Source: Methyloligellaceae bacterium (GTDB lineage Bacteria > Pseudomonadota > Alphaproteobacteria > Rhizobiales > CBDHHC01). From it: a stretch of 64,000 bases of DNA. Numbering within the stretch: the first letter of the stretch is position 1; each line of letters begins with the position of its first letter. The notes beneath the pieces are model-generated. The model worked only from the letters and a program-made list of their open reading frames with translations, was not told the DNA's origin and did no database searches. Location: the NCBI GenBank assembly GCA_965263345.1, contig CBDHHC010000016.1, forward strand, positions 212,861 through 276,860, in the 5' to 3' direction. The translations under genes were made by a program, and so were the position numbers. Shown one piece after another: positions 49,590-54,675 of the stretch.

Positions 49590-50150
49590 ATGTTAAAATT
49601 ATTCATATTATCCTTAGGATTTGCAAGCACACTTTTCTTTAACGCACCAAGCTTTGCTGTGGGTTTAACAACACCTGATCAAGAAGTAACTGTTGAAATT
49701 TCTGGTTGGATTAAAAGAACTTGTGGTTTAAAAAACCTTCCTACAAAAATTGAACTTGGGAATTTAGAAACCAAGAAAAATCAACGTATTGAATTTACAG
49801 TTAATTGCAATGCTCCATTTTCTTATGGAATTTCTTCAAATGAAGGGGGGCTAAAATATGTCAATGAAAGTAAAGCCTCGAATTTAAAAACGACCACAAT
49901 GATTCCATATCATCTGGATGTTACGATCCCTATGGATAGGGGGATAATTAAAAATTCTTGCGCAAGCAAAACACTTCCTAAAGCTATTGGTGAGCCAGCC
50001 CAGTGCAAGTTTTCAGATTCAGGCCAAGATGTTTCTATAGACAAAACGGCTACAATGGATATTTCCTGGAATTTAAAGCAACTTAAGAATGGTCCCGCCT
50101 CTGGGATATATAAAGATCGCTTAACAATTTGGGTTGGTTTAAAACCTTAA
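49590..50150 (+). CDS. SCPU-domain (Csu-type) fimbrial subunit-like secreted protein
   Basis: Signal peptide, Cys pair, C-terminal GIYKDRLTIWVGL resembling spore-coat-U/Csu pilin terminal strand. Confidence 0.5.
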   Translation: MLKLFILSLGFASTLFFNAPSFAVGLTTPDQEVTVEISGWIKRTCGLKNLPTKIELGNLETKKNQRIEFTVNCNAPFSYGISSNEGGLKYVNESKASNLKTTTMIPYHLDVTIPMDRGIIKNSCASKTLPKAIGEPAQCKFSDSGQDVSIDKTATMDISWNLKQLKNGPASGIYKDRLTIWVGLKP

Positions 50151-50167
50151 AATTTTCATTATGATAT

Positions 50168-51079
50168 TCATGGTATGACAGGCGTAATTTTTATTTTAAC
50201 AATATCTTTATAAAAGCCAGCACGCTTATTTTTTGTTGAACCAATTGTTATACTCAATTTATGTCTTGTATTCCCATCTAATGAAATCGCATCCTTCTTT
50301 GTTAAGGCAATTCCGTTTTTTGAAAATTGTATAAGCTCCCCATCAAGGAACGCTTTATAATTAACATAATATGTCTCATTTGTGAGATTGGATGTTCTTT
50401 TCAAGCGCCCATTGTTCTGGGAGTTTAAGAGTAATTTATAGTTTTGATTTGATCGAGTTTGTATAAAAATAGATTTATTGTCTCCTTCTTTTAATTCCTC
50501 AAATTGCAGAGTTCCATAACGATTCCCTCCTGCTATGTTTACGCTCAGCTTTGGAAATATTTGGCTTGAAATGATGATTTCTTTTTCCTCAAAAGGCGCG
50601 CCGACAATATTGCGTTTATCATCTGTTCTAAAAACTCGAATAAGAAGTTTGTCATCATATGTCCCAACAGGTAATGAGATGCCTCTCGGAATTCTAATCA
50701 AATAGCTGACATCTTTTGATGTTCCTGGCAAAAAATTCTCATTTAGAATATTTAAGGCTTCATTTTGTACAGCCCGATCCAACTGACCTAACTTAACCAA
50801 TTGGGTTCCATTTTCATCCAAAATTTCATATGGAAGTTTTTTCCCTAATTTAAGTACTAATGATGAACTGGAGAAAGAAAGGGCCAACTTACATTCGGTC
50901 TTCCCTACATTCTTGAGTTTTAATCTCAAAGGAGCAACAAAATCAACAGCTGAGAAAGAATCATAAGTTCCTATATTATTGTTTACAGACGCAGTGATTT
51001 TTCCCTGACATGCTTGGACTGGCATTGAGAGCAACATGAATAAAAAAGACATCATTAAAAGTATTGAGGAATGACTCAC
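50168..51079 (-). CDS. SCPU-domain fimbrial tip/adhesin-like subunit (CsuE-like position)
   Basis: Signal peptide. Last gene after usher (ATGA overlap). C-terminal GFYKDIVKIKITP. Confidence 0.5.
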   Translation of the reverse strand: MSHSSILLMMSFLFMLLSMPVQACQGKITASVNNNIGTYDSFSAVDFVAPLRLKLKNVGKTECKLALSFSSSSLVLKLGKKLPYEILDENGTQLVKLGQLDRAVQNEALNILNENFLPGTSKDVSYLIRIPRGISLPVGTYDDKLLIRVFRTDDKRNIVGAPFEEKEIIISSQIFPKLSVNIAGGNRYGTLQFEELKEGDNKSIFIQTRSNQNYKLLLNSQNNGRLKRTSNLTNETYYVNYKAFLDGELIQFSKNGIALTKKDAISLDGNTRHKLSITIGSTKNKRAGFYKDIVKIKITPVIP

Positions 51080-53868: not shown

Positions 53869-53925
53869 ACAAATTTCCTCAAATAAAAATGAGGACCCCG
53901 CTTTTTTTAACGTATCCCTCTCATA

Positions 53926-54675
53926 TCAATGAGCCGGATAGATTATGTCTGCCTGCAAACTCTGGGTATTCTCCGGTAGTTTCACTGGCAAAATAAATTG
54001 CCTCCTTTTTCCTGGTTGAATCAGACCAAGACCTAGTGTTTCTCTCAATTCTTCTGAACTCAGCGTTTTTGACCATGTATTTGTTTTTAGGTGAATATCT
54101 GCATCACTAAGCCTTGCATGCTTGTTGGTCGGATTGCCCAGTACCAATCTTGGAACAACATCGCCTTTATTCGTTTCTATAATTTCTGACTTATATAAAG
54201 TGATCGCTGCCTTCGATTGTGGGGGAGCCACATTGACAATCGTCGTGATATTTAAAACAAGCTGTACGCCTGTTGATTGTTTTGACAAAGCAACTGGAAG
54301 CTGATTGACAGAGAAAATAAAACTCTCGCTTTTCTTCAAATCGGGGTCTCCAACCCACTCAATCCGAAACACTTGTTGTGCTCCGGACGGAATGAGTGAT
54401 TGTGGAGGAAAGATAAGAAAATCCTCACCGGCCTTTTGGGTGGTGATGGCTCCATTTTCTTTTATGTCCATACGTGAGACAACAATTTCAACAGGTGTAC
54501 CTGCTGAAGATTCGTTAAAGACGGTCAGCTGCGCCCGGCGGTCCTGTCCGAGCGCACTCATCTCAATGACGAGTGGACTGACGCTTAAAGCCAGTGCTGG
54601 AGAAACAGCAAAGGCATGGAGCAACAAGCCTACTAAACATGAAAGCCGTAAGATATGTTGGGACCAGTTTTTCAT
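53926..54675 (-). CDS. Periplasmic pilus chaperone (CsuC/PapD-like)
   Basis: Signal peptide. Two Ig-like domains, ...FLIFPPQSLIPSGAQQVFRIEW... 249 aa. Confidence 0.75.
   Translation of the reverse strand: MKNWSQHILRLSCLVGLLLHAFAVSPALALSVSPLVIEMSALGQDRRAQLTVFNESSAGTPVEIVVSRMDIKENGAITTQKAGEDFLIFPPQSLIPSGAQQVFRIEWVGDPDLKKSESFIFSVNQLPVALSKQSTGVQLVLNITTIVNVAPPQSKAAITLYKSEIIETNKGDVVPRLVLGNPTNKHARLSDADIHLKTNTWSKTLSSEELRETLGLGLIQPGKRRQFILPVKLPENTQSLQADIIYPAH

Follow-up and report, generated by a model that had tools for sequence, protein, structure and literature searches.

The window analysed here, a 64-kb stretch of contig CBDHHC010000016.1 (64,000 nucleotides; coordinates refer to it unless another locus is named), carries at 49590-57196 what we read, with a probability of roughly 80%, as a chaperone-usher (CU) pilus gene cluster. 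Its nearest studied relatives are the archaic systems (sigma, SCPU/Csu-type), and it would belong to an uncharacterised, mainly alphaproteobacterial branch. The Pfam families Usher, PapD_N and SCPU are matched above their gathering cut-offs, though weakly, and a structural model of the usher matches FimD and PapC. An initial annotation had proposed a CU pilus locus of four genes at 49590-54675. The four open reading frames (ORFs) on which it was based, of 186, 303, 930 and 249 amino acids (aa), are confirmed in position, strand and length, and all four are intact. The proposed span left out about 2.5 kb with a regulator and two pseudogenes, and these bear on whether the pilus is still made.

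All genes except one lie on the minus strand. The gene of a GerE/LuxR-type regulator with a weak PAS-like middle part, identified by Pfam, is found at 56027-57196 (389 aa). The operon's first gene is a 160-aa pilin pseudogene (55717 to 55231), recognised from its translations and from an intact orthologue, and it is followed by the pseudogene of a secreted one-domain PapD_N protein of about 150 aa (~55154 to 54702; translations and PapD_N). Then come the intact genes of a PapD-like periplasmic chaperone with two domains (53926-54675, 249 aa; Pfam PapD_N), an outer-membrane usher (51076-53868, 930 aa; Pfam Usher and AlphaFold2 (AF2) model) and a two-domain tip subunit (50168-51079, 303 aa; Pfam SCPU and family alignment). 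The remaining gene, also intact, encodes a 186-aa pilin subunit on the plus strand (49590-50150; family profile and model). It is convergent with the tip gene, and the two stop codons are 17 nt apart.

Coupling by ATGA, as had been described for this operon, was not found. The usher and tip genes overlap by GTGA, with the GTG start at 51079-51077 and the TGA stop at 51078-51076, and the chaperone and usher genes do not overlap but are separated by a gap of 57 nt, which holds a short hairpin and a GAGGA Shine-Dalgarno sequence ahead of the TTG start of the usher. The hairpin (TCCTCA-8 nt-TGAGGA, minus strand, 53876-53895, from a consensus scan) has a 6-bp stem and an 8-nt loop, and its 3' arm overlaps the usher ribosome-binding site. 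It may act as an attenuator, as an mRNA-stability element or as a modulator of usher translation or of the chaperone-to-usher ratio, but it is weak and not above chance in the scan (12 terminator-like sites against 5.4 +/- 2.6 expected). In the same promoter and terminator scan, promoter-like sites were no commoner than in shuffled sequence (19 against 27.7 expected).

Pfam Usher (PF00577) scores 29.3 bits in the 930-aa protein (cut-off 27.1). The usher family profile gave only chance-level matches against the sequences of the PDB, and a fold search was used instead. The AF2 model (pLDDT 74) aligned with full-length FimD and PapC over ~880 columns, with E-values of 7e-35 to 1e-28 and TM-scores of 0.5-0.69. 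An outer-membrane protein of a non-pilus family, a reading named in the initial annotation among those that would speak against a pilus, is therefore excluded. As modelled, the usher architecture is present, with an N-terminal domain, a plugged beta-barrel and C-terminal domains. The length of the protein, previously thought unusual, is normal for the family: homologues in the databases have 686-1005 aa, and related ORFs counted from stop to stop have a median of 884 codons. In the model, the additional residues fall into several loops and into the N-terminal 67 residues, which are disordered.

Detectable homologues of the usher are few, numbering 14 in a word-indexed set of 5.8 billion proteins. 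A tblastn search of 72,556 plasmids with the usher gave 37 records, which were members of its own family and clusters of the Acinetobacter/Ralstonia/Sinorhizobium type. Classical ushers of enterobacteria, though abundant, were not matched in this search.

The 303-aa protein matches Pfam SCPU (PF05229) in residues 200-296 with 29 bits (cut-off 22.4), and 7 of 24 members of the tip family match at E<=0.01. CsuE is the best solved relative of the family profile among the PDB sequences, with a weak E-value of 0.005. Both tip domains end in a G.Y.D strand. The mature protein begins at the conserved Cys24 directly behind the signal peptide and carries no donor strand, while in the pilins an extension of about 20 residues of alternating hydrophobics precedes the equivalent cysteine. 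This N-terminal contrast would be the one expected between a tip and polymerising subunits. A tip homologue follows the usher gene in 61 loci. We also considered the tip as a lipoprotein, as its cysteine stands at +1; this is unlikely, as the preceding residues rarely fit a lipobox.

The convergent 186-aa gene encodes a pilin. Its product has a signal peptide, a donor-strand-like N-terminal extension VGLTTPDQEVTVEISGWIK and the conserved cysteines Cys45/Cys73 and Cys124/Cys139. It ends in ...ASGIYKDRLTIWVGLKP (fuller form ...GIYKDRLTIWVGLKP) with a C-terminal GIYKD...P strand, and the 303-aa protein ends in ...RAGFYKDIVKIKITPVIP (fuller form ...GFYKDIVKIKITPVIP). The observation that both subunits end in strands of the G(I/F)YKD...P type thus holds, and the motif is conserved across both families. 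The 186-aa family is homologous to the SCPU-positive C-terminal domain of the tip (hhalign probability 97%, E 5e-11). The AF2 model (pLDDT 80) has an Ig-like body and a disordered N-terminus of 44 residues, as expected for an unpaired donor strand, and Foldseek matched it to the donor-strand pilins CfaB, CS20, FimF/G, CupE and CsuA/B with TM-scores of 0.3-0.5.

A cysteine pair is invariant in archaic pilins (PMC4654587, Fig 1 legend). Invariant pairs are found here at Cys45/Cys73 in the 186-aa family, Cys38/Cys69 in the decayed pilin and Cys24/Cys63 in the N-terminal domain of the tip, matched to the cysteines of Csu subunits by sequence position only.

Pfam PapD_N scores 26 bits in the 249-aa chaperone (cut-off 23), and all 24 family members searched match. 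The closest solved relatives of the chaperone family, by profile against the PDB sequences, are CsuC (E 2.8e-4) and then EcpB (E 0.097). The invariant proline of the FPPQ motif, at the kink of strand D1, is retained; it aligns with Pro59 of CsuC, and 73 of the 75 family chaperones have it.

The kind of CU system was assessed by scoring reference proteins from annotated records against the family profiles of usher, pilins and chaperone. Against the usher profile, an Acinetobacter usher of the SCPU type scored 105 bits and FimD 11.8 bits, and EcpC gave no hit. A PGAP-annotated Acinetobacter SCPU pilin scored 38 bits with the 186-aa pilin profile (FimA 6.7 bits) and 36 bits with the 160-aa pilin profile. 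For the chaperone profile the values were 20.5 bits for the Acinetobacter SCPU-type chaperone, 2.3 bits for FimC and 22.4 bits for EcpB. Because CsuC and CsuE are the best solved relatives, and given these scores and the plasmid search, the nearest characterised kind is the archaic (sigma) one. Alphaproteobacteria are among the bacteria known to carry archaic systems (PMC4654587).

The gene order agrees with this. In Csu of Acinetobacter baumannii (CsuA/B-A-B-C-D-E) and in CupE of Pseudomonas, pilins, chaperone, usher and two-domain tip follow in the same order, the subunits likewise have a C-terminal G.Y.D strand and, judged by sequence position, an N-proximal cysteine pair, and the placement of a CsuE-like two-domain tip after the usher is seen here in a tip gene that overlaps the usher stop. 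The differences are that the window usher is only ~22% identical to the Acinetobacter SCPU-type usher, that the window lineage has an additional one-domain PapD_N gene and a convergent pilin gene, and that its chaperone has isoleucine where CsuC has the carboxylate-anchoring Arg89. In the common pilus of E. coli (Ecp/Mat), a system of the alternative type, a LuxR-type regulator (MatA/EcpR) also stands at the head of the operon, and a second chaperone-like gene is likewise present; however, no sequence similarity links MatA to the 389-aa regulator, none is detectable between EcpC and the window usher, and EcpB, though the second-best solved match of the chaperone family, keeps Arg89. The classical type 1 (Fim) and P pili share the usher architecture and the donor-strand pilin fold but almost no sequence similarity, as the low scores of FimD, FimC and FimA indicate.

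Several observations weigh against the assignment. All Pfam scores are near their thresholds, and NCBIfam gave no useful name for any pilus component; because the Pfam scores were marginal, relatives were gathered for a comparison at the level of families. The 186-aa pilin has no match to Pfam SCPU, only 2 of 20 members of its family match at E<=0.01, and the major pilin families are essentially invisible to this profile. Its gene has no obvious Shine-Dalgarno sequence or promoter. An arginine that anchors the C-terminal carboxylate of the subunit (Arg89 in CsuC and EcpB) is the most characteristic feature of non-classical chaperones (PMC4654587), and the window chaperone has Ile120 in this column; the anchors of classical chaperones, Arg8 and Lys112, are absent as well, with neither basic residue at the aligned positions. 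The Acinetobacter SCPU-type usher scores 43 bits with FimD and 37 bits with the window usher and is thus about equally near to both, and therefore a placement within the sigma clade is unproven. Finally, nonsense codons in the first two genes, described below, could cut the expression of chaperone, usher and tip by polarity.

The type given in the initial annotation, Csu/sigma (SCPU), therefore needs to be qualified: the closest characterised systems are indeed of the SCPU/Csu type, but the chaperone lacks Arg89 and the 186-aa pilin fails the SCPU profile. A failure of the subunits in SCPU or fimbrial profile searches had been named beforehand as a result that would speak against the proposed locus; this pilin is upheld only by comparisons of family profiles, with a model that matches donor-strand pilins. 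Taken by its sequences, the locus probably works like an archaic CU pilus but belongs to a distinct and uncharacterised branch.

The extent of this branch was examined in related genomes. A pattern scan of GTDB genomes gave 78 loci, nearly all from Alphaproteobacteria (Hyphomicrobiaceae, Rhodomicrobiaceae, Caulobacter and sphingomonads). From an iterative ORF search, a layout common to 79 loci was obtained, consisting of a LuxR-type regulator, one to seven pilins of the 186-aa type, chaperone, usher and a two-domain tip of ~300 aa. The usher homologues of the alphaproteobacterial clusters, for example JI59_RS24690-24675 on plasmid pLA5 of Novosphingobium pentaromativorans and those of Caulobacter, Sphingopyxis, Hyphomicrobiaceae and Rhodomicrobiaceae, have 30-46% identity. 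These clusters and the outlying ones on plasmids of Vibrio alginolyticus and Leptolyngbya share the same order of usher, chaperone, pilins and tip, often with the LuxR-type regulator, and PGAP names chaperone and usher as fimbrial. The window locus differs in its G+C content, which is 38% against 57-63% in most relatives, and in that two of its genes are pseudogenes. In one related high-GC locus (L001), fragments of IS66 and other transposases lie at 13842-18267, just downstream of the tip gene.

On plasmid NZ_CP046807.1 of the gammaproteobacterium Vibrio alginolyticus (L092, 2365-9021), a member of the usher family scores 231 bits. It is accompanied by a LuxR-type regulator, a 292-aa tip, two pilins of 164 aa whose annotation is "hypothetical", and a pair of full-length chaperones in tandem. 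Thus, there are two full-length chaperones where the window has the one-domain PapD_N protein and a chaperone. The first of the two keeps the equivalent of Arg89, unlike the alphaproteobacterial chaperones.

The position of the 186-aa gene sets the window apart. Across the 79 loci there are 213 ORFs of the 186-aa type, and every one of them is encoded upstream of the usher and on the strand of the operon, in no case convergently. The convergent position is common only to the window and two contigs, L080 and L087. L080 is 97.8% identical over 49482-53599 and has the same arrangement. On L087, which comes from the same sample as L082, a homologue is 52% identical to the 186-aa protein, and ~22 nt past the pilin gene the opposite strand encodes the C-terminal end of a tip (...KRAGFYRDIVKIKIIPVQP*). 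Because L080 and L087 share it, the convergent arrangement is not a recent accident. In a repeat search, neither inverted nor direct repeats turned up that could account for an inversion of the 186-aa gene or delimit an island. The low-GC sublineage would therefore have a design of its own, in which regulator, one or more 160-aa pilins, one-domain PapD_N protein, chaperone, usher and tip are joined by a convergent pilin that is transcribed separately.

The loss of Arg89 is a property of the family. Among 75 family chaperones the column holds arginine three times and otherwise I, M, L, Y, F or V; arginine is found in CsuC, EcpB, the Acinetobacter SCPU-type chaperone, the first Vibrio chaperone and the Leptolyngbya chaperone. 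The tails that follow the G.Y.D motif are 9-11 residues long in pilins of the family and 8 residues long in the SCPU pilins of Acinetobacter. Because the anchor is lost in 72 of the 75 chaperones and the C-terminal tails of the pilins are 1-3 residues longer, an altered anchoring can be proposed. In this proposal, which is doubtful and which we would expect to fail more often than to hold, the alphaproteobacterial branch would anchor its subunits unlike both classical and archaic or alternative chaperones; in the low-GC sublineage, the domain-1-only protein would be a dedicated partner of the 160-aa pilin, and the decay of both genes would be the loss of one module, with the pilus rebuilt from the 186-aa pilin.

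The one-domain PapD_N gene is interrupted by a single in-frame TAA (54920-54918), where its orthologue on L082, a more distant low-GC relative, has lysine. PapD_N scores 33 bits in its product (E 6.7e-8). The intact orthologue of 154 aa is encoded between the pilin genes and the full chaperone and is 68% identical, against 59% for the full chaperones of the same pair. Both orthologues span strands A1-G1 and stop exactly at the domain boundary, with no domain 2. The FPPQ kink, the F1-G1 donor hairpin and the hydrophobic G1 strand are retained, and a glutamine stands where the full chaperones carry a family-invariant arginine.

To domain 1 of the neighbouring chaperone the identity is 31%, and with the tandem Vibrio chaperones the protein scores 55-60 bits for the first and 15-20 bits for the second. 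Given the low identity to the neighbouring domain and the better match to the first Vibrio chaperone, it is probably an old chaperone paralogue that has lost domain 2. The gene was seen only in the window and L082. The contexts of L089 and L090, which are more distant relatives with a 160-aa pilin, are too short to show it, and metagenome scans with the one-domain PapD_N pair and with the chaperone gave no relatives.

The pilin pseudogene begins with a signal peptide in its minus-strand translation and has three lesions: TAG at 55585-55583, TAA at 55372-55370, and a 1-nt insertion (+1 frameshift) at ~55307. The reconstructed product of 162 residues aligns end to end with intact proteins of 150-170 aa, the best among 1.84 billion representatives being P0142 with 48% identity; its SCPU score of 12.5 bits is under the cut-off. 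A cluster look-up gave P0221, the intact 160-aa orthologue from a closely related genome. Compared with it, the TAG is an extra codon, the TAA replaces a glutamate codon (GAA), and deletion of one T from CTTAATAGTG restores the ...DLKVNL... frame. Reassignment of stop codons was considered and rejected, as neighbouring genes terminate normally with TAA or TGA.

The close relative, whose state is known from the proteins P0016, P0020 and P0221 only, differs in ~9% of residues from the pseudo-pilin (P0221), in ~2% from the mature chaperone (P0016) and in <1% from the regulator (P0020). The higher divergence of the pseudo-pilin fits relaxed constraint rather than sequencing error. The lesions are read from the assembled sequence, and the one-domain gene is otherwise well conserved save for its single TAA; the three stops and the frameshift could then be errors of sequencing or assembly in a locus that is fully functional as in its relatives. 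We hold this for very improbable. The four lesions are independent and lie inside 1 kb, while the adjacent 5 kb of ORFs are clean, and two of them are base substitutions (GAA to TAA and AAA to TAA) and not the homopolymer indels typical of sequencing error. In addition, the public annotation of the same assembly carries fragments of the pseudo-pilin as separate ORFs (P0141 and P0220), and the excess of amino-acid differences over neighbouring genes is that of a gene under relaxed constraint.

With true lesions, the cluster as a whole could be a dead relic, in which the first pilin was lost, polarity silenced the operon and the other ORFs have yet to decay. Two of the seven genes are already pseudogenes, and as they head the operon, premature stops in them can have polar effects. 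Furthermore, the chaperone of the high-GC locus L001 is split into 181 aa and 64 aa (9084-9910), so that the window genome is not the only one in which a locus of this family has decayed. On the other hand, the ORFs of 930, 303, 249, 186 and 389 aa are intact with all family-invariant residues. The usher has 18 synonymous and 12 non-synonymous differences from that of L080, a 2x-coverage contig with obvious indel errors, and this mostly synonymous change suggests purifying selection. Related loci also work with a single pilin gene, and the intact set of 186-aa pilin, chaperone, usher, tip and regulator is the minimal set of several of them (L028-L034). A dead relic is thus rather unlikely.

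The 186-aa pilin appears to be on a separate, convergent transcription unit. Between a system that has been remodelled to a pilus of this pilin and one that is on its way to loss, we regard the odds as roughly even.

In the 389-aa protein, GerE scores 22.5 bits (E 8.5e-5), just below the cut-off of 23.5 bits, and the PAS matches are weak. In 38 related loci, as in the cluster on the Vibrio plasmid, a homologous GerE regulator stands beside the pilus genes, and the protein is likely to be the transcriptional regulator of the operon. On L082 no remnant of the regulator was found in the 380 nt upstream of the pilin.

Beyond the gene identities, homologies, lesions and synteny given above, the mechanism of assembly, the adhesive function and the expression of the cluster are inferred by analogy with Csu and other CU systems. 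Subunits would be exported by Sec, and the G1 strand of the 249-aa chaperone would cap the open Ig-like groove of each by donor-strand complementation. The chaperone would then hand them to the 930-aa usher. The 303-aa two-domain subunit, because it has no donor strand of its own, would enter first and become the adhesive tip, and the pilins, with their N-terminal donor strands, would polymerise below it by donor-strand exchange. Expression is probably controlled by the LuxR/GerE regulator beside the operon.

The SCPU family is named for a coat protein. As the subunits are SCPU-like, and as fibre and coat are indistinguishable by sequence alone, the machinery might deposit a surface coat or secreted protein, as proposed for spore coat protein U of Myxococcus (Mcu), and not an adhesive fibre. 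This is highly unlikely in view of the donor-strand extensions on the pilins and of a two-domain last gene whose product, lacking such a strand, mirrors the CsuE tip adhesins. No sign of sporulation was seen in the window. The solved assemblies of the SCPU type, Csu and CupE, are fibres (PMC9452303).

The locus adjoins a glycan-biosynthesis cluster, as had been described. This left flank (35961-49404, minus strand) encodes NeuB, a UDP-GlcNAc 2-epimerase, a Wzx-type flippase and a GT1 glycosyltransferase, and also TylF-like and C-methyltransferases, a GFO/IDH/MocA oxidoreductase and an AsnB-like amidotransferase; its content suggests that it makes a modified nonulosonic-acid surface glycan. On the right flank (57857-62719), a class I polyhydroxyalkanoate synthase PhaC (610 aa), a VIT1 family protein, a phasin and a 530-550-aa protein with a zeta-toxin/AAA domain are encoded.

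Homology to L080 ends at 49482, beyond which Fic and DUF2695 genes replace the glycan cluster. Compared with L080 there are 28 substitutions in the last ~100 nt before this junction, 22 in the 561-nt pilin gene and 1 in the 912-nt tip gene, a pattern that suggests a point of recombination between strains. The pilus and glycan clusters had been proposed to form one surface-structure genomic island, in which both would have been acquired horizontally. They are immediately adjacent, with the glycan cluster ending at 49404, and the junction at 49482 is variable between strains. Nevertheless, L080 keeps the pilus genes at 97.8% identity beside different neighbours, and the two clusters are therefore not inherited as a unit. 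No tRNA gene was found in the 64-kb window and no integrase or insertion sequence on either flank, and the G+C content across the locus (0.34-0.41) is like that of the rest of the window, without a compositional anomaly. In addition, Alphaproteobacteria, to which the host probably belongs, are the class in which pili of this family are typically found, and as the taxonomic range of the family matches that class there is no reason to invoke transfer between classes. A common island is accordingly improbable.

Elsewhere in the window, at 314-2362, 16787-19007 and 21747-25202, EF-G, MutY, SMC and a full-length CcrM-like adenine methyltransferase (618 bits; equivalog cut-off 830) are encoded. These housekeeping genes and a G+C content of 38-40% suggest that the host is a low-GC alphaproteobacterium. 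A Legionella-like, gammaproteobacterial host that had received genes from Alphaproteobacteria by horizontal transfer was weighed on account of the low G+C content, the nonulosonic-acid genes and the Fic/zeta-toxin neighbours, and it was given up once the full-length CcrM-like methyltransferase and SMC had been recognised. An ORF at 10178-11287 (plus strand) with weak similarity to RNA ligases of the T4 RnlA family (E 3e-11) adjoins the RNase P RNA gene (11289-11682, minus strand; 330 bits). The ORFs 11297-12118 (plus strand) and 11801-12943 (minus strand) overlap the RNase P RNA gene or each other, and at least one of them is probably spurious.

Archaic CU pili are the most widespread class of CU adhesins and have been studied almost only in Acinetobacter and Pseudomonas. 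The locus described here is an entry point to a large and essentially unannotated branch, found in Caulobacter, sphingomonads, Hyphomicrobiaceae and a low-GC alphaproteobacterial lineage, whose pilins and tip are "hypothetical proteins" in public records. As the hallmark residue of non-classical chaperones is replaced in this branch, it bears on how general the assembly model derived from Csu is. Specialists may note four features: the family has lost the arginine, one chaperone paralogue consists of domain 1 only, one pilin gene is convergent, and lead pilin and one-domain protein have decayed as a pair. With the lead pilin dead, predicting the capacity for adhesion or biofilm formation from the presence of the genes alone is unsafe.

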